Below, one piece after another: positions 21,960-55,568 of a stretch of DNA of 64,000 nucleotides; the first letter of the stretch is position 1, and each line of letters starts with the position of its first letter. A program made the translations under genes and the position numbers. Below the pieces are notes generated by a model. That model ran no database searches. It saw only the letters and a program-made list of their open reading frames with translations, and had not been told where the DNA came from. Source of the DNA: Niveibacterium sp. (GTDB lineage Bacteria; Pseudomonadota; Gammaproteobacteria; Burkholderiales; Rhodocyclaceae); NCBI GenBank assembly GCA_031554255.1, contig JAVBKC010000020.1, forward strand, positions 2,120-66,119, read 5' to 3'.

Positions 21960-23333
21960 TCAGGCCTCCAGCTCGCGCGCCTTGGAAATCGCCTGCTCGA
22001 TGCGGTCCACGCCAATGGTTTCGAGTCCGGCGATGGCGTGTTTGGGCAGATTGGCCTTGGGCACCAAGGCGATCTTGAAGCCGAGTTTCGCAGCTTCCTT
22101 CAAGCGCTCCTGACCGCGCGGCGCCGGTCGGATTTCGCCGGCGAGTCCGACTTCGCCGAAGACGACGAAATCGCGCCGCAGCGGTTTATTGCGCAGCGAC
22201 GAGACGATGGCCAGGCACACGGCAAGGTCGGCCGCCGGTTCGCCGATGCGCACGCCGCCGACGGCGTTGACGAATACGTCCTGATCGGCGCAGACCAGGC
22301 CCGCGTGCCGGTGCAGCACGGCAAGCAGCATCGCGAGCCGGTTCTGTTCGAGGCCGACCGAGAGCCGGCGCGGATTCGGCGCGTGCGCAGGATCGACGAG
22401 CGCCTGGACTTCGACAAGCAGCGGCCGCGTGCCTTCCTGGGTGACGAGCACGCAGGCGCCGGAGACATCCCTGTCGTGTTGCGAGAGAAAGATCGCGGAG
22501 GGGTTGGAGACGCCGCGCAAGCCGCGCTCGGTCATCGCGAAGACACCGAGTTCATTGACCGCGCCGAAGCGGTTCTTGATCGCGCGCACGAGGCGAAAAC
22601 TCGATTGCGTATCGCCTTCGAAATAGAGCACTGTGTCGACGATGTGTTCGAGCACGCGCGGACCGGCAAGGCTGCCGTCCTTCGTGACGTGGCCGACCAG
22701 CACGAGCGCACAGCCGTTCTGTTTGGCAAAGCGCGTGAGCTGCGCCGCGCATTCGCGAACCTGCGCGACCGAGCCGGGCGCAGAGTTCAGCGCCTCGGAA
22801 AATACCGTCTGGATCGAGTCCACGACGGCAAGCGCGGGCTTCTGGCCGCGCAGTGTTTCGAGAATGCGTTCGAGGTTGATTTCCGGCAGCAGTTCGAGTT
22901 CGCCACAGTCGAGCTGCAAACGCTGGGCGCGCATCGCGACTTGTTCGGCCGATTCCTCGCCGCTGATGTAGATTGCGCGGCTTTTTTGGGCCATGCCGGC
23001 AAGCGCCTGCAAGAGCAGCGTCGATTTGCCGATACCAGGATCGCCGCCGATCAGCACGACGCCGCCCGTCACCAGGCCGCCGCCGAGTACACGGTCGAAT
23101 TCATCGACACCAGTGCTCATGCGCACATGCTCGCTCGGCGCAATCGTCGCGAGTTTTTGCAGCTTACCGGTTTCGCCAGCCAACGCGGCAAAGCGACTCG
23201 TTGCGGGCAAGCTGGCCGTCGCAATGGTTTCAACGAGCGTGTTCCACTGTCCGCAGGCCGGGCACTGGCCCTGCCAGCGCATCGCGTTGCCGCCGCATTC
23301 GCTGCACTGGTAAACCGTTTTGCTCTTGGCCAC
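21960..23333 (-). CDS. radA: DNA repair protein RadA/Sms
   Basis: Contains YQCSECGGNAMRWQGQCPACGQWNT (zinc finger), GGDPGIGKSTLLLQ (Walker A), the KNRFG motif and a Lon-like C-terminus. Confidence 0.96.
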   Translation of the reverse strand: MAKSKTVYQCSECGGNAMRWQGQCPACGQWNTLVETIATASLPATSRFAALAGETGKLQKLATIAPSEHVRMSTGVDEFDRVLGGGLVTGGVVLIGGDPGIGKSTLLLQALAGMAQKSRAIYISGEESAEQVAMRAQRLQLDCGELELLPEINLERILETLRGQKPALAVVDSIQTVFSEALNSAPGSVAQVRECAAQLTRFAKQNGCALVLVGHVTKDGSLAGPRVLEHIVDTVLYFEGDTQSSFRLVRAIKNRFGAVNELGVFAMTERGLRGVSNPSAIFLSQHDRDVSGACVLVTQEGTRPLLVEVQALVDPAHAPNPRRLSVGLEQNRLAMLLAVLHRHAGLVCADQDVFVNAVGGVRIGEPAADLAVCLAIVSSLRNKPLRRDFVVFGEVGLAGEIRPAPRGQERLKEAAKLGFKIALVPKANLPKHAIAGLETIGVDRIEQAISKARELEA

Positions 23334-23347
23334 TTTTATTTTGGCTT

Positions 23348-24430
23348 TCAGGCGAGAGCGCCGATGCCGCGCGGCACCCGTTGCGCCAGCGCGCAGAACA
23401 ATTCATAACTGATCGTGCCGGCCGCCGCCGCGACTTCATCGGCCGACAAGCCTTGGCCCCACAGCACGACGCGCGCGCCGACGCCTGCCTCGGGCAGTGC
23501 GGAGAGATCGCAGGCCAGCATGTCCATCGATACCGTGCCAAGCGTGCGCGTACGCACGCCTTCGACAAGAATCGGCGTACCTGTGGTTGCATGGCGCGGA
23601 TAACCATCGGCGTAGCCGCAAGCGACAACGCCGACGCGCATGGGCCGCTCGGCGGTAAAGCGCGCGCCGTAGCCGACAGACTCGCCGGCCGCAACGTTCT
23701 GGACCGCGATGATGCGGCTCTCCACTTGCATGACCGGCCGTAAATCCAGGCTTGCGGCCGTTGCGCGCGCCGGCATCGGCGAGGCGCCATAGAGCATGAT
23801 GCCGGGCCGTACCCAATCGCGCGCGGCTGCCGGAAAACGCATCAGTGCGGCCGAATTCGCCACGCTCTGCGGCAGATCCAGGCCGGCCACGCCGGCATCG
23901 AAGCGGGCCAACGCGTCAGCGATACCGGCCTCTTCGTCGGCGCGCGCGAAATGCGTCATCAGCGTAATGCACTTGGCGGCCCCGCTCTCGCGCAGGCGCG
24001 CGACGAGCGCAGGCGCGGCGGACGGAGGGAAACCGAGCCGATTCATGCCGGTGTTGAATTTGAGACAGAGGTCGAGCGGTGCCGTGGGCCGCGCGAGTTC
24101 CAGCATGCGCAGTTGCTCGGCGTCATGTACGACGAGCGAGAGCCCTAGCCGTGCGGCATCCTTGATGTCGGCCGGATCGAACGCGCCTTCGAGCAGCAGG
24201 ATGGGCTGCCCGAAGGCGGCCTCGCGCAACGCTACGGCCTCGGCGAAATCGAGCATCGCGTAGCCGTCGGCGATGTCGCGCACCGCGTTGGCGCAAGCAA
24301 AGAGGCCGTGACCATAGGCGTTGGCCTTGACGACGACCCACGCGCGCGCCACGCCGGCGCGATGCTTCGCGAGCATGTAATTGTGGCGGAAAGCGGCCGG
24401 ATCGATTGTGGCGTGGATCGGCCTAGGCAT
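23348..24430 (-). CDS. alr: Alanine racemase
   Basis: C-terminal 360 aa of track ORF 23348..24808. Contains VVKANAYGHG (PLP Lys), MTHFARADE and VGYGARF...VVACGYADGYPR. Start at MPRPIH (24430). Confidence 0.93.
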   Translation of the reverse strand: MPRPIHATIDPAAFRHNYMLAKHRAGVARAWVVVKANAYGHGLFACANAVRDIADGYAMLDFAEAVALREAAFGQPILLLEGAFDPADIKDAARLGLSLVVHDAEQLRMLELARPTAPLDLCLKFNTGMNRLGFPPSAAPALVARLRESGAAKCITLMTHFARADEEAGIADALARFDAGVAGLDLPQSVANSAALMRFPAAARDWVRPGIMLYGASPMPARATAASLDLRPVMQVESRIIAVQNVAAGESVGYGARFTAERPMRVGVVACGYADGYPRHATTGTPILVEGVRTRTLGTVSMDMLACDLSALPEAGVGARVVLWGQGLSADEVAAAAGTISYELFCALAQRVPRGIGALA

Positions 24431-25349
24431 GCTTCTGCGCCTCGGACATCGCGCGAATATGCTCGGTCGCGAAGTCCGCGAAGATGCTGACGACACGCGG
24501 CATGAATTTATCTTTTTGTAGCACGACGCTGATGGTTTCGAAGACCGGTGGATCGAACGGAATCGCGACGAGCGTCGCCGCGCGAATATCGCGCTGGATC
24601 GAGGCGCGCGCGGCAGCAGAAAAACCGTGGCCTTGCAGCACCAGATGCTTGATCGTCGTGAGGCTGCCGAGTTCGGCTGCGATATTGAGGTTCTCGGGCG
24701 GATAACCGGCGTCGCGGAAGAATTCTTCGATAAGCTCGCAGATCGCCGCACCCGGATCGCGGTTGATGAACGCATGATCGCCGACGTCCTCGGCGCGCAG
24801 GCGTACATTACGGCTCAAGGGATGGCCCGGCGGCATGATCGCAAGCAACTCGTCGCGCGAGACTTCGCGGCATTCGAGCGCCGGATCGTTCGGACGCGAT
24901 TCGATCAAGCCGATGTCGAGTTCCTTTTCGGCCACGCGGCGCTCGACCCACTCCGAATTACCCTGAAACACGCGCGGAATCACTTTCGGGTATTCGCGCT
25001 TGAAGGCGTCGAGCAGCGAGGGCAACCAGTACGAGGCAATCGTCGGCGACAGCCCGATCGAGACGACGCCGTTGGGCTCCTGCGTCAGACCGGCAACCTC
25101 GTCCTCCATTTCGGCGCTGACGCCGAGAATTTTCTCGGCATATTCGAGCACGATGCTGCCGGCTGGCGTCAGCGTGACCTTGCCGTAGCCGCGATCGAGC
25201 AGGCGCGTATTGAAATGCTCTTCGAGCTGCTTGATCTGGAAGGTGACGGCCGGCTGCGTCATATACAAAGCCTCCGCAGCACGGGTGAATGACCGGTGCT
25301 TGGCGACGGCAAGAAATACTTGAAGCCGACGATCGGCCATGGTTGCCAT
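24423..25349 (-). CDS. LysR-family transcriptional regulator
   Basis: Contains LQVFLAVAKHRSFTRAAEALYMTQPAVTFQIKQLEEHF, an HTH plus LysR substrate-binding domain. Divergent from lplT. Confidence 0.9.
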   Translation of the reverse strand: MATMADRRLQVFLAVAKHRSFTRAAEALYMTQPAVTFQIKQLEEHFNTRLLDRGYGKVTLTPAGSIVLEYAEKILGVSAEMEDEVAGLTQEPNGVVSIGLSPTIASYWLPSLLDAFKREYPKVIPRVFQGNSEWVERRVAEKELDIGLIESRPNDPALECREVSRDELLAIMPPGHPLSRNVRLRAEDVGDHAFINRDPGAAICELIEEFFRDAGYPPENLNIAAELGSLTTIKHLVLQGHGFSAAARASIQRDIRAATLVAIPFDPPVFETISVVLQKDKFMPRVVSIFADFATEHIRAMSEAQKHA

Positions 25350-25562
25350 GATGAACTCCCGATGCGCGCCCGGCCGCTCCGCTTCTACGGAATCGAGGCA
25401 AAACGCCGCGCGCGTGGATTTTTATTGCAGCGCGGCAATTGCAACACAAATGCGGCGGCCTCGCCAGCGAGCAAGGCTTGCCGCCATATGCCCGAGCAAG
25501 GCGTCATCCGATACTTCGTGTTATAAAGCCGCGATCCCTTCGGGGCCACTCGATACGAACGG

Positions 25563-26813
25563 ATGACCCCAGGCTTCTACATCATCATGGCGGCGCAGTT
25601 CTTTTCGGCGCTTGCCGACAGCGCGCTGCTGATCGCCGCCATCGCCATCCTGCGCGACATGCACGCCGCGACGGCGGTCGAGCCATTACTCAAGCTCTTC
25701 TTCACCGTGTCCTATGTCGTGCTCGCGGCCTTCGTCGGCGCCTTCGCCGATTCGATGCCGAAGTGGCGCGTCATGTTCATCAGCAACGGCATCAAGATCA
25801 TTGGCTGCGCGACGATGTTCCTCGGCGTGCATCCGCTCGCGGCTTATGCCATCGTGGGTCTTGGCGCAGCGGCCTATTCGCCGGCCAAGTACGGCATCCT
25901 GACTGAACTCTTGCCGCACCGCCTGCTCGTCGTCGCCAACGGCTGGATAGAGGGCCTGACGGTCGGCGCAATCGTGCTCGGCACGCTGATCGGCGGCGCG
26001 CTGATCGAACCTGTCGTCGTAAAACATGTGCTCGCGCTTGGCATTCCGGGTGTGGGTACGCGCGGCGAAGTCGCGATCACGGTCGTCGGCGTGCTCTACG
26101 TAATCGCCGCGCTCTTGAATCTGCGGATTCCCGACACCGGCGTCGACCACAAGCCGCTACATAACAACCCGCTCTACCTGCTGCACGAATTCAGGCACTG
26201 CGTGAGCCTGCTCTGGCGCGACAAGCTCGGCCAGATTTCACTCGCAGTAACGACGCTGTTCTGGGGCGCCGGCGCCACGTTGCAGTTCATCGTGATCAAG
26301 TGGGCCGAGATGAACCTCAATCTCAACCTGTCGAAAGCCTCGATGGTTCAGGGCGTTGTCGCAATCGGCGTCGCTGTCGGTTCCATCCTTGCCGCACGGC
26401 TGATCTCGATGCGGCGCGCGGCCTCGGTCGTACCGCTGGGCATCGCGATGGGCATCGTCGTCATGGTGATGATCTTCGTCTACGACATCAAGCTGGCGCT
26501 CTTCCTGATGATCGCAATCGGCGCACTCGCAGGTTTTTTCGTCGTACCGATGAATGCCTTGCTGCAACACCGCGGCCACATCCTGATGGGCGCAGGCCAT
26601 TCGATCGCAGTGCAAAACTTCAACGAAAACCTCGCCATCCTCTTGATGACCGGTTTTTATTCGATCCTGATCGGCTACGGACTCCCGGTCCACACCGTGA
26701 TCGTGCTCTTCGGCTGCTTCGTCGCCGGTACGATGCTGCTGGTGCAAATACGCCACAGGATGAACCAGCGCGAGTTCGATTCGGTTTCCCAGCTTGAGGA
26801 TGTGCGTCACTGA
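25563..26813 (+). CDS. lplT: MFS lysophospholipid transporter
   Basis: 416 aa, 12 TM. Contains FYIIMAAQFFSALADSALLIAAIAIL...FADSMPKWRVMFISNGIKIIGC, typical of LplT. Confidence 0.8.
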   Translation: MTPGFYIIMAAQFFSALADSALLIAAIAILRDMHAATAVEPLLKLFFTVSYVVLAAFVGAFADSMPKWRVMFISNGIKIIGCATMFLGVHPLAAYAIVGLGAAAYSPAKYGILTELLPHRLLVVANGWIEGLTVGAIVLGTLIGGALIEPVVVKHVLALGIPGVGTRGEVAITVVGVLYVIAALLNLRIPDTGVDHKPLHNNPLYLLHEFRHCVSLLWRDKLGQISLAVTTLFWGAGATLQFIVIKWAEMNLNLNLSKASMVQGVVAIGVAVGSILAARLISMRRAASVVPLGIAMGIVVMVMIFVYDIKLALFLMIAIGALAGFFVVPMNALLQHRGHILMGAGHSIAVQNFNENLAILLMTGFYSILIGYGLPVHTVIVLFGCFVAGTMLLVQIRHRMNQREFDSVSQLEDVRH

Positions 26814-26840
26814 TATTGTTGTTAAGGGAGAAGTGTCCCA

Positions 26841-27566
26841 ATGGACTTGGATTTCTTCAGCATCCAATTTGCGCACGGTAACGACGAAGCCGTATACAAG
26901 TACGCTATTGATCAATTGCGCGTCCAGACCATCATTCTCGGCACCCACTTCTCTCTGGACGGCAAAACCCGGCAAGCCTATGCCTTCAACATTTCCCGCC
27001 TGGATAGCGAATTCCGCATGAAAGTCCTCGCAGGACACCTGAGCTGGAAGGAAGCCGCCAAGCAGGCCAATGCCTTGCGCAACCTCATGCTTGAAATTCA
27101 ACGTGGGCAGAGCAGCACGTTAGGGCGAGCCATTGCCGTGGCCATGAAGGAGAGTGGCATAAGCTTCAATGCACTGATTGCCCACAATACCCTGAAGCTA
27201 TACGGCCAAAACGCCGATTTCACACTGCTTAGCGTGGCCGAGAAAAATGCCGTCTATGGCGCAATCATTGAATCCTCGGCAAGATCCAGTCCGAGAGTCA
27301 CAGCATTGATGCGCATACTCGGTCCTGTCGGCAAAGGGCTTATGGTCCTCAGTCTGGGAATTGCCGTCTATAACGTCATGACGGCCGACAACAAAACCAC
27401 GGCAATCCTGCATGAAGCCGGCATCACCGCCGCAGGTGCAGCCGGTGGTTGGGCCGGCGCTGCGGTGGCGGGCCTAGCCTGTGGCCCCGGCGCGCCGGTT
27501 TGCGTGGGCCTCTATGTTTTCGTCGTCGGCGCGGCCGCCGCACTGGGCGTCAGCCTGCTCATGTAA
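26841..27566 (+). CDS. Hypothetical protein; membrane-inserting / pore-former-like toxin candidate with a Gly/Ala-zipper hydrophobic C-terminal hairpin
   Basis: 241 aa. In-frame stop at 26823-26825, SD aagggag about 8 nt upstream of the ATG, no signal peptide. Helical N-region, then KGLMVLSLGIAVYNVM-(polar turn)-ITAAGAAGGWAGAAVAGLACGPGAPVCVGLYVFVVGAAAALGVSLLM. AT-richer than the flanking genes. Confidence 0.7.
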   Translation: MDLDFFSIQFAHGNDEAVYKYAIDQLRVQTIILGTHFSLDGKTRQAYAFNISRLDSEFRMKVLAGHLSWKEAAKQANALRNLMLEIQRGQSSTLGRAIAVAMKESGISFNALIAHNTLKLYGQNADFTLLSVAEKNAVYGAIIESSARSSPRVTALMRILGPVGKGLMVLSLGIAVYNVMTADNKTTAILHEAGITAAGAAGGWAGAAVAGLACGPGAPVCVGLYVFVVGAAAALGVSLLM

Positions 27567-27589: not shown

Positions 27590-28528
27590 ATGCGACTCGC
27601 GCCCGAAATCACGGCGAAACTGATCTTTGAGGCAACCGACAAGGAAGACCCTTACAGCGCAATTCTGTTGAACGGCATGCCAATCGGGGTGTTCGTATTG
27701 GGCGAATACTTGGAAGCGGCCCTTGCCTGGCACGATTGTTTCGTTGTGCTATTAAGCGACAATTGCTTCGCAGAAGCTATCTATATTCACCTATTAGATG
27801 CAAAGGGCAATCTGATTGATTCGGCGGTTATTGGTACGATCTTGTCATTGGGGAACTTTAGGTCATTTCAGATAACAGGATCTGATCAGTTTTCATTTAG
27901 CTTCTTTGCCGACGATCAGTTTCAGGTAACCCTGCTTTCCAGACCGCGCTTCCGCGGATTCTGGCCCGCAGCTTTTGGCCTGCTACGGGGATTCATGTAT
28001 CTTAGGGTGGGCTGGTGGCGCCATTTCAGCATCCGCCGACAGGTATTCGTTGCCGAGAAAACCAAGGACGGTATGCGCTTGGCGCCCGAGATCACGGCCG
28101 AACTACTCGTCAAAGGACGCGCCGGGAAAGCTTCTTATAGCGCAATTCTTTTGAACGGCAGTGCAATCGGAGCGTCCGTGAAAGGCGAGCGTCTGGTGAC
28201 GGCCCTTGCCTGGGGCGATTTTTTTGTTGTGCTTTTCGCTGACACTTGTGCCTTCGCCACCCGCATCTACGTCCATTTTCTGGATTCTAAAGGACGACTA
28301 CTGGATTCTGCGATTATTGGAGCCTTCTCTTCAGAGGGAAATTTTAGATCGTTGCAGATAACCGGATTAAATCAGTTTTCGTTCCGCTTTCATGCCGAAG
28401 ATATATGGCATATTGAGCTATTCTCAGAATTACGCTTACGTTGGCCATTGCCTTGGTCAAAATCTCGGCTCGCTTGGAGGGGTTTTAGGCTGTGGCACCA
28501 TTTCGATGTCCGCCAACAAACTCGCTGA
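27590..28528 (+). CDS. Hypothetical protein made of two fused tandem copies of an unknown ~160-aa domain (candidate cognate immunity/partner)
   Basis: The ATG at 27590 lies 23 nt after the stop of the upstream gene. Residues 1-161 and 162-312 align end to end (MRLAPEITAKL.. / MRLAPEITAEL.., SAILLNG, ALAW.D.FVVL, IY.H.LD.KG.L.DSA.IG, GNFRS.QITG..QFSF.F). The region is AT-rich. Confidence 0.7.
   Translation: MRLAPEITAKLIFEATDKEDPYSAILLNGMPIGVFVLGEYLEAALAWHDCFVVLLSDNCFAEAIYIHLLDAKGNLIDSAVIGTILSLGNFRSFQITGSDQFSFSFFADDQFQVTLLSRPRFRGFWPAAFGLLRGFMYLRVGWWRHFSIRRQVFVAEKTKDGMRLAPEITAELLVKGRAGKASYSAILLNGSAIGASVKGERLVTALAWGDFFVVLFADTCAFATRIYVHFLDSKGRLLDSAIIGAFSSEGNFRSLQITGLNQFSFRFHAEDIWHIELFSELRLRWPLPWSKSRLAWRGFRLWHHFDVRQQTR
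27590..28528 (+). repeat. In-frame tandem duplication, unit about 483 nt (copy 1 at 27590-28072, copy 2 at 28073-28528)
   Basis: Both copies begin atgcg(a/c)(c/t)t(c/g)gcgcccga(a/g)atcacggc. By eye the protein copies are roughly half identical. Confidence 0.85.
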
Positions 28529-28865
28529 CGGGGAACTCGACGACTACGCGGGGTCGCCCGTCTGCGAAGTATATCGGCGGGCGTGCCCCGCAGGCCGCTA
28601 CGAACTACATTATATGAATGTATTGCCGTCCTACGCCGAGAGACCGATAAGCATTGCAATATTGCAGGTCTGGGATATACGACAAGACTGGTGAGCCTTT
28701 CAAGGACGCTCCGCCGCCAAGCTCGAACCACCATGCACGGAATTTGAACCGAGTCTTGCCTGCCTTGCGCAGCGGCGCGCTGCGGCATCGAATCGTCGGC
28801 AGCGCGGAAGGCTTCTTCGCCCGCAAACTCTCATGCAATAACGCCCACGCGGCAACGAAACACCA

Positions 28866-32840: not shown

Positions 32841-33377
32841 GTGGTATCCGACAAACCCGGAAACCGTGGTTTTACGCTCATCGAGCTGTTAGTCACGCTA
32901 TCGATTGCGGCAATCCTGGCCGCAATCGCGCTGCCAAGTTTCGATGCAACCATCCAGCGCAATCGCATCAGCATAACCGCCAGCAATCTGCAGGCGGATC
33001 TGGCCTATGCAAGAAGCGAAGCGGTGCGCCGCGGCCGTTCCGTTGCACTATGCCCGGCAACACTTGGCGCAAGCGCGTCCTGCAACGGCGGCACCGACTG
33101 GGCCACGGGCTGGATCGTCTTTGTCGATCAGAACGGCAACGGCGCGCTCGACGCGGACGAGAGCGTGCTGCGCCAGCGCAGTCCGGAAAGGAACTTGTCC
33201 GTGTCGCCGTTGAGCGGTTCGCTGGCTTCGGCCAGCGCAATTCGCGCGCTACCGGTCGGAGAGTTTTCCCAGGACGGCGTGATCCGCGTCTGCAAGCCCG
33301 CATACATCGGCGTAGACCTTGCCATTCAACGCGGCGGCGGCATACGGACCCAGCCCAGCGGTACGGTGTGCGCATGA
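32841..33377 (+). CDS. fimT: Type IV pilus minor pilin, GspH/FimT family
   Basis: Prepilin leader [28 protein letters not shown]. First gene of the minor-pilin operon. GTG start. Confidence 0.85.
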   Translation: MVSDKPGNRGFTLIELLVTLSIAAILAAIALPSFDATIQRNRISITASNLQADLAYARSEAVRRGRSVALCPATLGASASCNGGTDWATGWIVFVDQNGNGALDADESVLRQRSPERNLSVSPLSGSLASASAIRALPVGEFSQDGVIRVCKPAYIGVDLAIQRGGGIRTQPSGTVCA

Positions 33378-33925
33378 TGACATCGAAGTATCTCCAGCGC
33401 GGCCTGACGCTGATCGAAAACCTTATCGCCCTGCTGCTTCTGTCGTTCTCGCTGCTCGGCCTGGCGGGGCTGATCGCCAAGACGCTGGTCCGCGAGAAGG
33501 ATGCCGTTTCCCACTCGCTCGCCGCCCTGCAAGCGCAGGACATTGCCGAGCGCATGCGCGCCAATCGCAAGGCTTATGACGCGGGCATTTACTTCGTCTA
33601 TCTGAGCGCAGCTGACACACTCGCCAACGCGCAAAACTGTAGTGCTGGCGGCTTTGCTGCGACGCCCTCCCCCGCCGTTTGTTCGCCGGTCCAGATGGCG
33701 CAGGACGATGCCTTCGACTGGCGCCAATGGGTCGCCAAATCCCTGCCGGGCGGCGTCGCCGTCGTCTGCCGCGACGACACGCCCGACGACGGCAGCGACA
33801 CCGACGTCGCCTGCGACAACGGCAGCCGCATCGCGATCAAAATCTTCTGGCGCGTGGCGCGTGGCGGCGGCCGGGCAAGCGATCGCAGCGACATACAACG
33901 CTTCACGATGGTGTACCAGCCATGA
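33374..33925 (+). CDS. pilV: Type IV pilus modification protein PilV
   Basis: Contains MMTSKYLQRG/LTLIENLIALLLLSFSLLGLAGL. Position and size are typical. Overlaps the fimT stop. Confidence 0.8.
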   Translation: MMTSKYLQRGLTLIENLIALLLLSFSLLGLAGLIAKTLVREKDAVSHSLAALQAQDIAERMRANRKAYDAGIYFVYLSAADTLANAQNCSAGGFAATPSPAVCSPVQMAQDDAFDWRQWVAKSLPGGVAVVCRDDTPDDGSDTDVACDNGSRIAIKIFWRVARGGGRASDRSDIQRFTMVYQP

Positions 33926-34899
33926 AGCCGAATTTCGCCCACCCGCGCGGTTTCACGCTCGTCGAATTGTTGGTCGCGATGACCGTTGGCTTGCTGATTT
34001 CGGGCGTGGCCGCCGCAGTCTTCATCACAAGCAAGACGACCGCCCGGTTCGGGGATGCGCTGGCGCGCTATCAGGAAGGCTTCCGCTATGCCTCCCACAT
34101 ACTCGGGCGCGATATGCGGATGGCTGGCTTCTTCGGCTGCAATTCCGGCCGCACGCCGCTTACAGTCGCTTCCGGCATGCCCGCCGAACTTGCCTACGAC
34201 ACGCCGGTGCGCGGCTACGACGACGCTTCCGCCGCAATCGCGGGGCGCATCGCCGGCACCGACGTGATCAAGCTGCAGTTCGGCGCAGGTGGCGGCTACC
34301 GTCTTTCCTCCGACATGGCCACGGCCGACGCGGCGATCAACATCAATGCCTTGGCGGGCGATTTCGTCGCCGGCGACTACGCCGTCATAGCCGATTGCAG
34401 CAACTCGACGCTTTTCAAGGTGACGGGCGTCACCGGCTCCGGCGCTCCGCTCGCATTGAGCCACGGCGCGGCAGGCAACAGTTCCGCCAGTGTTGCGTCG
34501 CCCTATGCGCGCACTGCCGAAGTATTCGATTTCATTACGAGCTATTACTACGCGGCAACCAGCGCGGATAAGCGGCATGTGCTGATGCGCAGAACGTTGC
34601 GCGGCGGCAGCGCAAGCGACGAGGAAATCGCCGAAGGCATCGACGATCTCCGTTTCCTGTATGGCATAGACACCGATGGCGACACGACCGCCAACAAGTA
34701 TGTCAGGGCGGCGGACGTCGGCGACTGGAGCCGCGTGTTGAGCGTGCGCGTGTGCCTGCTCACGAGCAGTCTCGACGACGGGCTCGCGACGGCACCGCAA
34801 ATCTATTACGACTGCGACGGCGGCGCAGTCACTGCAAGAGATCGTCGCCTGCATGCGCCGGCGTTTTTCACGGTATCCCTGCGTAACCGCACAGGCTGA
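33922..34899 (+). CDS. pilW: Type IV pilus assembly protein PilW
   Basis: Contains HPRG/FTLVELLVAMTVGLLISGVAAAVF. About 325 aa; ATGA overlap with pilV. Confidence 0.8.
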   Translation: MKPNFAHPRGFTLVELLVAMTVGLLISGVAAAVFITSKTTARFGDALARYQEGFRYASHILGRDMRMAGFFGCNSGRTPLTVASGMPAELAYDTPVRGYDDASAAIAGRIAGTDVIKLQFGAGGGYRLSSDMATADAAININALAGDFVAGDYAVIADCSNSTLFKVTGVTGSGAPLALSHGAAGNSSASVASPYARTAEVFDFITSYYYAATSADKRHVLMRRTLRGGSASDEEIAEGIDDLRFLYGIDTDGDTTANKYVRAADVGDWSRVLSVRVCLLTSSLDDGLATAPQIYYDCDGGAVTARDRRLHAPAFFTVSLRNRTG

Positions 34900-34901
34900 T
34901 C

Positions 34902-35399
34902 GTGACCAGATCATCGCAAAACGGTTTTTCGCTCGTCATCGTGCTCGTTTTCATGCTCGTGCTGCTCATGATCGGCATCACCGGCATGCAAGCCTCGGGC
35001 ATGCAGGAACGCATGGCCGGACACAGCCGCGACCGCTCCGTCGCCTTGCAGGCGGCCGAGGCGAGCTTGCGTGCGGCCGAAAACAGGACGCTTTCGCTCG
35101 GCGCCTTCGATGGCGACACAGCCTGCACGAACGGCATTTGCGCCACCGGCTCGGCGCCGGATTCGTTGGGTTACGACTGGAGCGACGGCCGCTCGGCCGC
35201 GCTCGATCCGGCCACGGACGCTTCGCTGCAGCTCTCCTCCGCGCTTGCCGGCAAACCGCGTTATTACCTCGAATTTGCCGGCTTGAAACCGACGCCGGGC
35301 GCCAGCGAGGGCGCGAGCTTCGTGTTCCGCGCGAGTGTCCATGCTGTCGGGCAAAACGCCCGAACCGCCGTCGGATTGCAAAGCACCTATGCTCACTGA
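34902..35399 (+). CDS. pilX: Type IV pilus minor pilin PilX
   Basis: Contains QNGFSLVIVLVFMLVLLMIGITGMQ...RDRSVALQAAEASL, a PilX N-terminal motif. GTG start. Confidence 0.75.
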   Translation: MTRSSQNGFSLVIVLVFMLVLLMIGITGMQASGMQERMAGHSRDRSVALQAAEASLRAAENRTLSLGAFDGDTACTNGICATGSAPDSLGYDWSDGRSAALDPATDASLQLSSALAGKPRYYLEFAGLKPTPGASEGASFVFRASVHAVGQNARTAVGLQSTYAH

Positions 35400-38300
35400 G
35401 CAGAAAAACGGCCGAATGCCTTTTCCCGTTAAATCCTTACGTCATGGCGTGAAACTTACGCTGCTGGCGCAAATCGCATGGCTCCTGCCCCAAGCCGTGC
35501 AGGCGACGCCGCTTGCAATTCCGGACATTCCGCTCTTCGTCTCGCGTCCGGTCGCGCCCATCGTCATGCTGGACGCTTCCCGCGATCATCAGCTTTTCTA
35601 CAAGGCTTATAACGACTACACCGACCTTGACCCCGAGAAGAACGACGGCATCGAGACGACCTACAGGCATTCGTTCGACTATTACGGCTACTTCGATCCC
35701 TACAAATGCTACAGCTACAACGTCGGCGCGAGCCGCTTCGAGCCTGCCGCCACGACCGGCGACAAATATTGCGCGGGTAACTGGAGCGGTAATTTTCTCA
35801 ACTGGCTTGCCATGACGCGTGCCGATGTCATGCGCAAGGTGCTTTTCGGCGGTGCGCGGAGTACCGACACGGCGGGCGAAACCGTGCTCGAACGCGCGAA
35901 CCTGCCGTCCGACGCGCATTCCTGGGTCAAGTTCTACGACGGCTCCGATCTCGCCCGTCTGACGCCGTTCGCAAATGCGAGCGCGAGCGCCAAATCCTTT
36001 GCGACGCAATCGAACCAGGCCGGGACTACGCTTTCGCTGCCGCTTGCCAGCGGTTTCGGCTATATCGGCGATCAAGTCGTCATTACGCTGTCGGCCACGA
36101 GCAAACTCTACGGCGTCATCTCCGCCACAAGTTCGGACAGCGTGACGCTCGATATGCGCGACAACGTCACGCTTGCGCAAGGCGCTTACGCTGCCCTGAA
36201 TCTGTCGCGCAACGGCATTTCCTTTTGCAATACCACGGCGGCCGATAGCGGCCATTCGGAAAACACGACAGCACCGCCCGTGATTCGCATCGCACAGGGC
36301 AATTACGCGCTTTGGTCGGCCAGCGAAAGGCGCCAATGCCAGTGGTCGGAAAAGTACAACGCTACGCAGAACGGTTTTGCGGGCGGCATATTGTCGAACG
36401 GCAACCGCTACGGCGCGGGCAACAGCGTGTTGTCGGAGCTTGCCGCCTCCGCCGAGAATCCCGTCCAGACGAGCGTCGGGCTCAAGCTGGCCGGCATGAC
36501 GGACCCCGATTACGTTGTCCGCGTCAAGGTCTGCGACAGTGCCTTGCTCGGCAGCGAGCGCTGCAAGCTTTACGACGCAGCTTATAAACCTATCGGCCTC
36601 CTGCAAAAGTACGGAGAGGGCGCCAACCCGCGCATTTTCTTCGGCCTGACCACGGGCAGCTTCAAGAAGAATATATCCGGCGGCGTGGTCCGCAAGAACG
36701 CGAATTCGTCGTTGTCTGGAAATACGAGCACGGCAAATGACGAAATCGATCCTGCTACGGGCATCTTCAAATCCGGCTACAACGGCATCATCGGAACGCT
36801 TTCCGCGCTGCGGATTTACGGCTGGGATTACGCCAGTTCGGACTATATCGGCGGGGACAGTTGCAATTATCAGCAGATCGGCATAACGACCAGCGGTGGC
36901 TCCAATGCGCAAGGCCAGCCGGCGCAGGAAGGCAATTGTTCGAGCTGGGGCAATCCGATGTCAGAAATTTATGTCGAATCCCTGCGTTATCTTGCGGGAC
37001 GCGCCAGCACATCCGCATTCGGCTATACCCATTCCGGATCGAAGGACGCCGCCGTCGGACTCGCCGCTCCGGTAAGCTGGGCCGATCCTCTCGATAGTTC
37101 GAACTACTGCGCGCCGCTGAACGTACTCGTCTTCAACGCCAGCGTTTCGTCCTACGACGACGATCAGGCCGCCAGCGCATTTTCATCGGGCACCTCCTGG
37201 GGCGCACTGAACGACTGGACGAACAAGGTCGGCGTCGGCGAGGGCATCAGCGGCGGCGCGAACTACTTCGTCGGCGCCAACGGCGCCGGCTCGGACGGCG
37301 TTTGCACCGCCAAGGCGGTCGGCAATCTTTCCGATGTCTCCGGCATTTGTCCCGAAGCGCCAAGCCTGAAGGGCACCTATGGCATGGCCGGCGCAGCCTA
37401 TTTCGCGCATACGAACCCGATTCGCAGCGCGCTAGGGCCGGCGGGCGACGCCACGTCTTACACGGTGAACACATACGGCGTGTCGCTCGCGACGAGCGTA
37501 CCGCGTATCAACGTCAAGGTCGGAAACCGCAACGTGGTGATTCAGCCGGCATACCGGCTCGATCTGGGCAACGGCAAATATGGCACCGGCACGATCGTCG
37601 ACTTCAAGATCATCAAGCAGGACGCCACCTCGGGCAAGTTCTATGTAAATTGGGAAGACAGCAACCAGGGCGGCGACTACGACCAGGACGTGCTGGGCCT
37701 GATCAGCTACTCCGTCACGGGCTCCGACATCACGGTGACGACCCAGGTTACGTCGGCGTCGACGAACAACCCGCAGGGCCTAGGCTTCATCATTTCCGGC
37801 ACGAACAGGGACGGGCCGCACTTCTATTCGGGGATTTACGACTTTTCGTACACCGACCCCACGCCGCTCGTGGTCACGCCGGCCGGGAAACTCAATGCCT
37901 CCGGCGGCTGCAACGCCTGCACCGACCAGACCGACCGCACGGCGCGTTCGGCCACCTTCAACGCAACGGGCGCAGCAACGGCCGTGGCGCTGCAGGACCC
38001 GCTCTACTACGCCGCGAAATGGGGCGGCTTCGTGGATCTCCATAAAACCGGAAGCCCCGATACGACCGATACCTGGGACGCCAAAAAGGTAGATGGCGCG
38101 CCAGGCGGCGACGGGCAACCCGATAACTACTTTTTCGTCACCAATCCTGGCGCGCTCGAACAAGCGCTCGACACGGCCTTCACCGCGATCGTGAGCGCTT
38201 CGGCGGCATCGGCAGTCGGCGCCAATGCCGCATCGCTGACCAACGGCACCACGATTTACCAGGCGCGGTTCAATCCGCTCAATTGGACCGGCGATCTCGT

Positions 38301-55492: not shown

Positions 55493-55568
55493 GGCCAGAT
55501 AGCTCAGTTGGTAGAGCAGCGGATTGAAAATCCGCGTGTCGGTGGTTCGATTCCGCCTCTGGCCACCA
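55493..55568 (+). tRNA. tRNA-Phe (anticodon GAA), CCA encoded
   Basis: GGCCAGATAGCTCAGTTGGTAGAGCAGCGGATTGAAAATCCGCGTGTCGGTGGTTCGATTCCGCCTCTGGCCACCA folds as a cloverleaf: 7-bp acceptor stem, GCGGA/TCCGC anticodon stem, loop TTGAAAA, GGTTCGATTCC T-arm. Confidence 0.95.

Follow-up and report, generated by a model that had tools for sequence, protein, structure and literature searches.

The two-gene island described here, a 241-aa toxin gene followed by a partner gene, is probably a horizontally acquired orphan effector–immunity pair of the T6SS, whose membrane-inserting effector belongs to a new family. It lies between lplT and a GGDEF gene in a 64-kb window (the whole stretch of DNA that was analysed, to which all positions refer). 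The toxin and its partner most likely represent a new family within a known weapon class, the T6SS membrane toxins.

The putative toxin gene and its genomic setting

The island comprises the following features:

26824–26830, + strand: Shine–Dalgarno-like AAGGGAG, read from the sequence, 10 nt 5' of the toxin ATG
26841–27566, + strand: toxin gene, 241 aa, from a family that has no name and whose proteins are ~235 aa long (open reading frame, homologs, AlphaFold2 model)
27590–28528, + strand: partner (putative immunity) gene, 312 aa, consisting of two diverged ~155-aa units fused in frame

The toxin open reading frame was found as described in an earlier, sequence-only reading of this DNA, with the in-frame TAA at 26823–26825, the AAGGGAG and the ATG at 26841 all in place, and it is not a chance frame, since it has 110 homologs (32–50% identity) and the family comprises 509 representative clusters at 50% identity. 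The absence of a signal peptide, also claimed in that reading, was borne out, because the N-terminus of the protein is acidic and non-hydrophobic. The toxin gene starts 27 nt after the lplT stop codon; neither a sigma-70-like promoter nor a terminator was found in this gap, and therefore co-transcription of the two genes is possible.

The GC3 of the two genes is 0.67 and 0.54, as compared with 0.72–0.82 in the flanks. This low GC3, together with the mutually unrelated genomic contexts of the homologous loci and the presence of the module in only a few E. coli genomes (14 of 5,426), supports the horizontal acquisition of the island. Flanking direct repeats and an adjacent tRNA, both hallmarks of mobile elements, were sought around the island and not found. 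The module is rare on plasmids, and in some genomes it is located beside H-NS, an integrase fragment or IS630. Vertical synteny with an Acidovorax group near lplT–alr was considered and rejected, as the genes are ordered and oriented differently and identity between the host proteins is no higher than 50–54%. A phage origin was likewise rejected, the PHROGs matches being weak (E~2e-3) and directed to Gly-rich or TM parts of tail proteins.

Members of the toxin family occur in alpha-, beta- and gamma-proteobacteria and beyond; Paracidovorax citrulli and Pseudomonas yamanorum are among the carriers. Searches of Pfam, NCBIfam, PADLOC and PDB, as well as Foldseek, yielded no match for the family, and no curated library contains it, in line with the earlier statement that the protein cannot be assigned to a named family. 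One homolog is labelled 'glycine zipper family protein' in one source. However, the glycine-zipper families of Pfam, which had been suggested as a possible home, do not accommodate the toxin: although the motif is present, the curated models (Gly-zipper_Omp, YMGG and OmpA-type) matched neither the window protein nor 43 family members. No studied member of the family was found in the literature searched.

Structure and conserved residues of the toxin

The AlphaFold2 model of the toxin (pLDDT 84.7, pTM 0.72) is all-helical, with helices assigned by DSSP at residues 15–63, 69–90, 93–102, 109–121, 132–146, 151–181, 185–214 and 219–240. About 160 residues of amphipathic helices had been predicted previously; the model agrees with their helical nature, but not with their amphipathicity, since the hydrophobic moment of no helix was significant in comparison with shuffled sequences. 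The following regions can be distinguished within the gene:

26841–27290, + strand: N-terminal soluble helical domain, residues 1–150 (alignment A2, DSSP of the model)
27291–27383, + strand: first hydrophobic helix, residues 151–181, containing KGLMVLSLGIAVYNVM and followed by the polar turn TADNKT (model, alignment)
27393–27482, + strand: glycine-zipper helix, residues 185–214 (model, zipper motif count)
27480–27503, + strand: CGPGAPVC turn, residues 214–221, the best-conserved stretch of the family (column entropy)
27495–27560, + strand: last hydrophobic helix, residues 219–240 (model, tails of 38 toxins)

No other part of the toxin varies as much as the N-terminal domain, whose median net charge across the family is +8. 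In alignment A2, its residues D40, Y47, R80, N81 and R88 are invariant, and R44, K103 and G106 are nearly invariant.

The C-terminus consists of three hydrophobic helices with a glycine zipper. The succession recognised from the letters alone, namely KGLMVLSLGIAVYNVM (residues 165–180), a polar turn and a Gly/Ala-rich hydrophobic stretch reaching the last residue, is present in full; G and A make up 48% of residues 186–241, where nine overlapping (G/A/S)xxx(G/A/S)xxx(G/A/S) zipper matches were counted. The family consensus at the first hydrophobic helix is GRGLxxLSxAxSVYxVATAEDK. Column entropy is 0.84 at residues 211–220, the CGPGAPVC motif is found in 195–210 of the 258 family sequences, and the cysteines C214 and C221 flanking the hairpin turn are each at least 90% conserved. 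The pair is very probably a toxin-type module, as had been suggested, with a C-terminal hairpin that inserts into the membrane. In the last helix, the window copy carries LYVFVVGAAAALG instead of the near-invariant VGAFVGGALAAFG of the family, and among the tails of 38 toxins it is the only one in which two conserved Gly are missing. Because its last helix departs from the near-invariant consensus, the window copy may be attenuated.

A soluble helical body followed by a C-terminal hydrophobic hairpin recalls the pore domains of colicins, which are globular, with ten helices and a hydrophobic hairpin buried among them, and the sequence-only reading had described a colicin- or ionophore-like architecture. 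This likeness did not survive comparison: PF01024 matched neither the window protein (at E≤1) nor 43 family members (at E≤0.01), and a Foldseek search of the toxin model against 350,542 PDB chains returned no structural match (best E 0.22, TM≤0.27) and no colicin among the matches. On the basis of Pfam, the PDB sequence profile and Foldseek against PDB and BFVD, a colicin-like fold was rejected. A bacteriocin pore domain of the colicin type, which would be released and imported without a contact-dependent machine, is also at odds with the absence of a receptor or translocation domain, a lysis gene and a membrane immunity protein (the partner is soluble, not membrane-bound), as well as with the rarity of the module on plasmids. 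We therefore regard such an identity of the toxin as extremely improbable.

The partner gene

The proposed pairing of the toxin with the downstream gene was corroborated by the related loci, since a soluble all-beta protein of ~155 aa is encoded directly 3' of the toxin in 37 of 39 of them. In the window, the partner gene is composed of the following parts:

27590–28063, + strand: partner unit 1, all-beta, 11 strands (AlphaFold2 pLDDT 86.8, pTM 0.82)
28064–28075, + strand: unit junction, AAGGA, 4 nt, ATG (read from the sequence)
28073–28528, + strand: partner unit 2 (homology to unit 1 and to separate-gene copies)

The two units are 53% identical as protein and 69% identical as DNA over 330 nt, and a repeat within the partner gene (D1) has the 483-nt spacing of a tandem duplication. 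Both units share homology with the 155-aa gene located 3' of the toxin in other genomes, and at one locus (L013) they are found as separate genes. Judging from its letters, the junction is a putative ribosome-binding-like site with a start codon, retained from a formerly separate second gene. A third, inverted partner remnant, hinted at by a 19-nt inverted repeat, was searched for and not found. In a Foldseek search, unit 1 aligned with parts of beta-propellers (best E 1.3e-2, TMq 0.35–0.45), and it looks like roughly three blades of such a propeller. The partner family contains no signal peptide or TM segment; its median maximum hydropathy is 1.12, with values above 1.6 in 5 of 120 proteins. 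No Pfam family was detected among 46 partner sequences. As a database query, the full-length partner matched only itself, and its relatives were recovered via alignment A1.

Co-variation with the toxin, faster divergence, duplications and survival in an orphan-immunity array of E. coli lead us to regard the partner as a putative immunity protein. Partner distances track toxin distances (Mantel r 0.80, p≤5e-4), and the partner diverges faster than the toxin (0.62 versus 0.46). Co-variation is strongest for the N-terminal domain of the toxin (residues 15–66: mean distance 0.57, r 0.81, partial r +0.20). Tandem or extra partner copies are present at three loci (L013, L026 and L040) and in the window. 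In E. coli EC42405, a SUKH-like gene on one side and a CdiI_3 gene (63.9 bits) on the other enclose a 46-aa remnant of the toxin tip (E 2e-17) together with a complete partner (E 2e-37); this locus is an orphan-immunity array. Distant toxin branches are paired with other types of partner, namely DUF7079 and 2-TM mini-proteins of 59–76 aa, the latter limited to branches L037 and L046. The family has at least three unrelated partner types, an arrangement also seen in polymorphic toxin systems.

Alternatively, the partner could be a cytoplasmic chaperone or adaptor of the Eag/DUF1795 kind, shielding the hydrophobic C-terminus of the toxin before T6SS loading, with immunity encoded elsewhere or unneeded. 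The partner is indeed soluble and cytoplasmic, the hydrophobic helices of the toxin require shielding, and the module encodes no membrane protein. Nevertheless, we consider this role quite improbable. No match to DUF1795 or another chaperone family was found, while the fold matches propeller blades, albeit marginally (E~1e-2); in E. coli the partner is kept with the toxin tip only, in an immunity array beside CdiI_3; immunity genes typically show tandem duplication and diverge faster, as the partner does; and in other branches 2-TM mini-proteins replace the partner at the same position. A dual role as chaperone and immunity protein is possible, by analogy with ExiAB, and would be compatible with the interpretation of the pair as effector and immunity protein.

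Linkage of the homologs to T6SS

The sequence-only reading noted the lack of PAAR, VgrG and secretion genes around the pair, in which it saw a candidate for an undescribed stand-alone type of toxin. This absence holds for the 64-kb window, in which no T6SS gene was found, but it does not hold for the family. In the PAAR-fused cluster P0111 (6 members, one of them on 39 contigs), a PAAR_motif (65.6 bits) is joined to the module via a Ser/Thr/Pro-rich linker, and the partner gene is still present 10 nt downstream. At another locus (L035), the pair is part of a same-strand operon of the order hcp (132.6 bits), impE, toxin, partner and vgrG, the last of these with the domains Phage_GPD (337.8 bits), T6SS_Vgr and DUF2345. 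At two loci (L021 and L026), the genes directly upstream are tssF (552.9 bits) and tssG (264.9 bits), and a vgrG gene is located 8 kb from the module at L016 and nearby at L051. P0170 is a nuclease effector of 1360 aa, linked to VgrG, in which the module makes up the N-terminal part. P0122 has a neighbouring cluster with an AAA+ ATPase and no other Pfam-recognisable parts; delivery by an eCIS was considered in this case.

In view of the PAAR fusion, the hcp–vgrG operon and the adjacency of tssF/tssG or vgrG in homologs, the pair is better read as an orphan T6SS effector–immunity pair than as a carrier-less new type of toxin. About 30 non-redundant loci are orphans without T6SS genes, like the window, and T6SS delivery is therefore proposed for these copies by homology.

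The prevalence of such loci would also be compatible with a non-secreted intracellular toxin–antitoxin or abortive-infection module, in which a membrane-depolarising effector is checked by a cytoplasmic antitoxin or sensor. Most loci hold a stand-alone two-gene module without secretion genes, the partner is cytoplasmic, the composition is island-like, and the H-NS, integrase and IS630 neighbours seen in some genomes would fit as well. However, the PAAR fusion, the hcp/vgrG operon and the tssF/G adjacency are unexpected for toxin–antitoxin or defence modules, no PADLOC model matched the toxin, the partner or their homologs at E≤0.1, and CDI/SUKH immunity genes neighbour the module in E. coli, which makes an intracellular module of this kind very improbable.

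Proposed mode of action

For the orphan T6SS effector–immunity pair, the following scheme could be proposed. The 241-aa toxin would be made in the cytoplasm, where it is held harmless by the partner, and would be loaded, as cargo of Hcp or of the spike, onto a T6SS whose genes lie in another part of the genome and which would fire it into neighbouring Gram-negative cells. The conserved CGPGAPxC turn would staple the glycine-zipper helices, which would enter the inner membrane of the target and oligomerise, thereby dissipating the membrane potential. The soluble, cytoplasmic 155-aa all-beta partner would be the cognate immunity protein, most likely acting by binding the variable N-terminal helical domain of the toxin; in the window genome, two diverged units of this putative immunity protein have been fused into one polypeptide. 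In this scheme, we infer the toxicity, the secretion of the window copy, the pore-forming mechanism and the site of action of immunity.

Besides the lack of T6SS genes in the window and at the other orphan loci, and the divergent last helix of the window copy, two further observations speak against this interpretation. The immunity proteins of Tse4, Ssp6, Tse5 and colicins are membrane-associated, and against an inner-membrane toxin that attacks from the periplasm, immunity would not usually be expected to reside in the cytoplasm. Moreover, the invariant polar residues D40, Y47, R80, N81 and R88 could point to an enzyme rather than to a pore former.

In the latter case, the pair would still belong to a T6SS, but the toxic activity would reside in the N-terminal helical domain, as an enzyme tethered to the membrane whose substrate might be, for example, a lipid or a precursor of the cell envelope; the C-terminus would have no role beyond anchoring or translocating this enzyme. 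Such a division of labour would explain why polar residues (D40, R44, Y47, R80, N81, R88 and K103) that are invariant or near-invariant cluster in the soluble domain, and why the best co-variation of the partner is with the N-terminal region. An anchoring or translocating role of the module also fits its position N-terminal to the nuclease in P0170, and glycine zippers serve translocation in Tde1 (PMC10240207). On the other hand, no enzyme family or fold was detected for the toxin, conservation peaks at the hairpin turn and not in the soluble domain, and the E. coli remnant retains the hairpin only. An enzymatic N-terminal domain is therefore unlikely.

If the toxin is a membrane-inserting effector, its neutralisation from the cytoplasmic side might be accounted for by the toxin spanning the inner membrane of the target and exposing its N-terminal domain or another segment, which a half-beta-propeller immunity protein would capture. 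The family would then be a new class of T6SS membrane toxin, and the same module would have been reused at the N-terminus of cargo that acts in the cytoplasm, the P0170 nuclease for example, to carry it across the membrane. We put this forward as a conceivable, though rather doubtful, extension of the scheme. The half-beta-propeller immunity protein may work as a dimer, which would be hard-wired here as the fused two-unit chain.

Significance of the family

Membrane-attacking T6SS effectors are few and poorly understood, and the lessons drawn from Tse4, Tse5, Ssp6, VasX/Tke5 and Tme differ. The present family is large (509 clusters) and has neither a curated name nor a detectable structural relative, while its PAAR-fused, stand-alone and nuclease-fused forms and its three or more unrelated partner types offer natural experiments. 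The soluble propeller-like partner raises the question of the side of the membrane on which, and the manner in which, the toxin is neutralised, so far addressed only for the Gram-positive EsxX system. Should neutralisation take place on the cytoplasmic side, the pair would provide a genetically simple system for studying how a T6SS effector crosses the inner membrane. Both proteins are at present annotated as hypothetical, including in E. coli, and could enter the catalogues of effectors and immunity proteins.

Comparison with known systems

The toxin resembles the pore domains of colicins and the CDI ionophores in its general design, as a helical protein proposed to bury hydrophobic helices and insert them into the inner membrane, and CDI ionophore toxins carry a putative glycine zipper, as does the toxin described here (PMC11630599). 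However, these toxins show no similarity to the present one in sequence or fold, have integral membrane immunity proteins and rely on receptor/Tol–Ton import or on CdiA delivery rather than on a T6SS.

Ssp6/Sip6 of Serratia marcescens is similar in several respects. Ssp6 and the present toxin are both small (~215–240 aa) stand-alone proteins with a predicted alpha-helical fold; Ssp6 is a T6SS cargo, as the present toxin would be, and in both cases the gene often lies outside T6SS clusters and is followed directly 3' by the immunity gene (PMC6889166). It is an ion-selective pore-forming T6SS effector that depolarises the membrane (PMC6889166), the action proposed here for the present toxin, and distant branches of our family are also paired with tiny 2-TM proteins. 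Nevertheless, the suggested membership among Ssp6-like proteins was rejected: an SMDB11_0810-type sequence (L050), retrieved with the published primers, scored 0.3 bits against the family HMM (hmmsearch) and reached an hhalign probability of 0.5%. The C-terminal hairpin with its Gly zipper and CGPGAPxC turn is missing from Ssp6-like proteins; Sip6, a small protein with two TM segments, sits in the membrane, in contrast to the soluble beta partner of 155 aa (312 aa in the window); and the Ssp6 family is confined to Enterobacteriaceae, whereas the present one extends across proteobacterial classes and beyond. Weak entries of 229–245 aa in the hit table of PMC6889166 (Supplementary Data 1) share the gene size of the present family.

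Tse4/Tsi4 and Tse5-CT/Tsi5 of the Pseudomonas aeruginosa H1-T6SS are likewise T6SS-delivered and hydrophobic, forming channels and depolarising the membrane (PMC12169545, PMC11630599). Tse4 is an Hcp cargo of a similar size class (19.2 kDa). It was modelled as an Ntox25-like beta-barrel, and Tsi4 resides in the inner membrane (PMC11630599, PMC12169545); by these descriptions, the pair differs from the all-alpha toxin with its soluble partner, and no Ntox25 match was found in Pfam for the toxin family. Tse5-CT, unlike the present toxin, is encapsulated in an Rhs cocoon. In Tde1 of Agrobacterium, the glycine zippers of a T6SS effector promote membrane permeabilisation or translocation (PMC10240207), which parallels the 1360-aa module–nuclease protein, but in Tde1 the zipper occupies a short stretch at the N-terminus of a DNase, whereas the present module is a stand-alone unit of 235 aa with its own immunity gene.

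EsxX, a T7SS toxin of Staphylococcus aureus, depolarises membranes by means of a glycine zipper and is neutralised in the cytoplasm of the producer by the soluble ExiAB complex (PMC12744356). The likeness is one of description; EsxX differs in its secretion system (T7SS), in its LXG domain and in belonging to another phylum, and it has an additional membrane immunity pair, ExiCD, with no equivalent seen in the present module. Among the known systems, EsxX–ExiAB offers the closest precedent for a membrane toxin whose partner is cytoplasmic.

Putative Toxin Gene, Genomic Context and Predicted Structure

The putative toxin gene and the partner gene following it are flanked by genes that represent an ordinary housekeeping context. 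The features of the region are as follows.

21960–23333, 457-aa ORF, read as radA by inspection only
23348–24808, alanine racemase homolog, 50% identical to a Pfam-annotated gene of the Acidovorax/Paracidovorax-group locus L052
25563–26813, lplT
26841–27566, plus strand, toxin ORF, 241 aa
27590–28528, plus strand, partner gene (ATG at 27590), an internal tandem duplication of a unit of about 155 aa
28866–30662, GGDEF diguanylate cyclase (128.5 bits)
55493–55568, tRNA-Phe, far from the island

The toxin ORF of the sequence-only reading was recovered with an in-frame TAA at 26823 and AAGGGAG at 26824–26830 upstream of a start located 27 nt past the stop of the LplT-type MFS transporter gene (NCBIfam, 586.6 bits). 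The GC3 values of the toxin (0.67) and the partner (0.54), compared to 0.72–0.82 in the neighbours, show that the pair is foreign by composition; neither flanking repeats nor an adjacent tRNA were found at the island.

The two arms of a 19-nt inverted repeat (28168–28186 and 28695–28713), which are 95% complementary and separated by 508 nt, lie within the second partner unit and in the intergenic region ahead of the GGDEF gene, respectively. By our estimate the repeat is unlikely to occur by chance in 2.6 kb; derivation from a third, inverted copy of the partner was considered and rejected. In loci of the Acidovorax/Paracidovorax group (L008, L011, L016, L017, L023, and L052), the module also lies within about 5 kb of lplT and alr, in an order and orientation other than those at 23348–26813 and with host proteins only 50–54% identical; the shared proximity may reflect coincidence, an insertion hotspot, or ancient linkage. 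A run of ORFs at 32841–35400, whose translations on inspection carry the prepilin-type N-termini GFTLIELLV, RGFTLVELLVAM, and GFSLVIVLVFML, resembles a cluster of type IV pilus minor pilins with FimT/PilV/PilW/PilX-like members.

The N-terminus of the toxin is acidic. As had been proposed, it has no signal-peptide-like segment, and the hydrophobic C-terminus is likewise present: in the C-terminal third, KGLMVLSLGIAVYNVM and a polar turn precede a hydrophobic run, rich in Gly and Ala, that extends to the final residue. Residues 186–241 are 48% G+A and contain nine overlapping small-xxx-small-xxx-small matches. The AlphaFold2 model, built with 43 homologs as input, is confident and all-helical (pLDDT 84.7, pTM 0.72), with the final three helices at residues 151–181, 185–214, and 219–240. 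The amphipathic character earlier attributed to the helices was not confirmed, since the hydrophobic moment of none of them exceeded that of shuffled sequences.

Putative Toxin Family

A word-indexed database yielded 110 toxin homologs with 32–50% identity, and an exhaustive HMMER scan matched 509 representative clusters (50% identity), with E < 1e-10 for 286. Members are typically about 234 aa long, are labelled "hypothetical protein" in RefSeq, and occur in Pseudomonas, Bordetella, Acidovorax/Paracidovorax, Massilia/Duganella, Frateuria, Roseovarius, Leclercia, and Erwinia, among others, as well as in one Sphingobacteriales MAG and one planctomycete. Pfam, including the colicin pore domain PF01024 and the glycine-zipper families, gave no match for the window toxin or 43 aligned members, and NCBIfam, PADLOC, and a PDB sequence profile gave none for the toxin. 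A Foldseek search with the toxin model returned nothing in the PDB (best E 0.22, TM ≤ 0.27) or BFVD. The analogy to colicins drawn in the sequence-only reading is not supported by these searches.

The strongest conservation was found in AGLACGPGAPVC, the turn joining the final two helices and the lowest-entropy stretch of the protein, the Cys pair of which is kept in 195–210 of 258 family sequences. Conserved positions of the soluble part are D40, R44, Y47, R80, N81, R88, and K103. In family-level comparison, the N-domain is basic and the partner mildly acidic.

The last helix of the window toxin (27495–27560, residues 219–240) reads LYVFVVGAAAALG, with two conserved Gly lost relative to the near-invariant VGAFVGGALAAFG of the other toxins compared. 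Given this departure, the copy may be functionally diverged or attenuated. A further caveat for this copy is that the 64-kb window contains no T6SS gene.

Partner Family

The pairing of toxin and partner proposed earlier gained support: a gene of about 155 aa, homologous to each half of the window partner, comes next after the toxin in 37 of 39 related loci, with a gap of 10–19 nt or an overlap. The two units of the window partner share 53% protein and 69% DNA identity, and AAGGA-N4-ATG is still present at their junction. The partner family numbers at least 129 clusters and lacks both a signal peptide and TM segments; 46 members had no match in Pfam. The partner model contains 11 beta-strands (pLDDT 86.8, pTM 0.82), and in Foldseek it matched about three blades of various beta-propellers marginally (E about 1e-2, TMq 0.35–0.45, about 120 residues).

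Whether the partner is a chaperone or an immunity protein can be approached from its evolution. Across 38 pairs, toxin and partner distances are correlated (Mantel r 0.80, p ≤ 5e-4), with shared ancestry contributing, and the partner diverges faster than the toxin (0.62 versus 0.46). Partner copies are in tandem in locus L013 and fused in the window; L026 has one additional copy, and in L040 a second ORF lies downstream. In distant toxin branches, the downstream slot is occupied by unrelated 59- and 76-aa two-TM mini-proteins, a DUF7079 protein (101 bits), or a 239-aa protein, which is the pattern of polymorphic toxin systems.

The most telling point is an array in E. coli EC42405 (NZ_CP043414.1, 8116–10052), located between ybfA and ybgA, an interval that is the RhsC site in E. 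coli K-12. It consists, in order, of a SUKH-1-like gene (22.9 bits, just below the cutoff), an 85-aa ORF, a 46-aa ORF representing the toxin zipper hairpin alone (E 2e-17), the partner at full length (E 2e-37), and an immunity gene of the CdiI_3 family (63.9 bits). This is an orphan toxin-tip/immunity array; the element occurs in just 14 of 5,426 complete E. coli genomes, where it often adjoins an IS630 transposase. On account of the correlated distances, faster divergence, duplications, partner swaps, and this array, we favour an immunity protein over a chaperone.

Co-variation with the partner is highest for toxin residues 15–66 (r 0.81, partial r +0.20), and the hairpin hardly varies at all; this is suggestive of a partner tracking the variable N-terminal helices rather than the zipper.

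Intact partners also occur beside decayed toxins: in Rivihabitans pingtungensis (L036, 9845–10618) the toxin C-terminus is scrambled and looks frameshifted, and toxins are truncated in Erwinia amylovora (L038, 10001–10477) and Pseudoduganella flava (L039, 10016–10450). These cases are consistent with selection for immunity after toxin loss. On the Eleftheria terrae megaplasmid NZ_CP106953.1 (8062–10554), an H-NS gene and a fragmentary integrase flank a distant toxin with a DUF7079 partner; DUF7079 may be an uncharacterised immunity family.

Linkage of Homologs to Type VI Secretion

Most toxin loci are orphan, and when 146 immediately adjacent genes were scanned with Pfam, 142 families emerged, mostly unrelated. 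The absence of a carrier, noted in the sequence-only reading, holds for the window, but for the family it is overturned by several independent T6SS-linked homologs. In the family proteins P0111 and P0380 (414 aa), a genuine PAAR domain (65.6 bits, cutoff 27) is joined to the toxin module by a Ser/Thr/Pro-rich linker. The PAAR-fused cluster has six members, one of them on 39 contigs; at 46% identity, its toxin counts among the nearest relatives of the window protein, and it is still followed by a 151-aa partner. In a Rhodocyclaceae MAG (L035), hcp (T6SS_HCP, 132.6 bits), impE/tagJ (126.7), toxin, partner, and vgrG (Phage_GPD 337.8, T6SS_Vgr 70.8, DUF2345 63.4) are tightly spaced on the same strand. 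Two Oxalobacteraceae loci have divergent tssF (552.9 bits) and tssG (264.9 bits) directly upstream, and in Paracidovorax oryzae vgrG is 8 kb from the module.

In Mariniblastus sp. (JAOJCK010000049.1, 1–7076), a VgrG-like gene and a 131-aa gene precede a 1360-aa protein whose N-terminus carries the module and whose C-terminus carries Endonuclease_NS_2, followed by ORFs of 144 and 187 aa; no member of the 155-aa partner family is present at this locus. This domain order suggests that the module could act as a membrane-entry domain for a nuclease.

Another family member, P0122 (407 aa; L043/L044, 1–9884), has an N-terminal extension of no recognised kind and is divergent to a cluster of large Pfam-less proteins and an AAA+/AAA_lid_6 ATPase, with a reverse transcriptase gene downstream. 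This neighbourhood may serve delivery, as a contractile-injection locus or one of another, novel kind.

Proposed Mechanism

The toxin and partner are probably a T6SS effector–immunity pair. The toxin would be made in the cytoplasm, held there by the partner, taken up as Hcp or spike cargo by a T6SS whose genes lie elsewhere, and injected into neighbouring cells, where the glycine-zipper helices around the CGPGAPxC turn would enter the inner membrane and assemble into ion-conducting oligomers; partner-carrying cells would be protected. As the toxic act, we lean slightly towards pore formation or depolarisation over enzymatic action by the N-domain. The Cys pair flanking the turn may form a disulfide, provided that the turn is exposed to the periplasm.

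Comparison with Known Systems

A soluble cytoplasmic immunity protein is unusual for a membrane toxin. A precedent is ExiAB, which sequesters the EsxX glycine zipper prior to secretion (PMC12744356); the window family differs in the hint that its partner tracks the variable N-terminal helices. Nearest in lifestyle is Ssp6, which is small, helical, often orphan, and depolarising; however, its family is limited to Enterobacteriaceae and its immunity protein is a tiny two-TM protein (PMC6889166), whereas the window partner family lacks TM segments. Supplementary Data 1 of PMC6889166 includes weak Ssp6-like hits (HMMER score 20–35, 229–245 aa, genes of 687–735 bp), among them Klebsiella variicola, Dickeya, Pectobacterium, Providencia, and Serratia UMH5/6. 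Their size, typical of the window toxin family, prompted a direct homology test, for which an SMDB11_0810/0809-type locus was retrieved from a metagenome via primer sequences in the supplement of that paper. The SMDB11_0810-type toxin showed no detectable relationship to the family (0.3 bits against the family HMM; hhalign 0.5%) and has no C-terminal hairpin, which rules out Ssp6 membership; the weak hits may be misassigned members of the window toxin family.

For Tse4 (19.2 kDa), an Ntox25-like beta-barrel has been modelled, and Tsi4 resides in the inner membrane (PMC11630599, PMC12169545); the model of the window toxin, by contrast, is all-helical. CDI ionophores and colicins have membrane immunity proteins and other delivery (PMC11630599), in contrast to the soluble window partner. 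From these comparisons, the toxin family is new within the known class of T6SS membrane-targeting effector–immunity pairs. It has no name, and its unusual putative immunity protein is soluble, propeller-like, and here tandem-fused; the family represents a well-defined lead for T6SS biology rather than a new principle.
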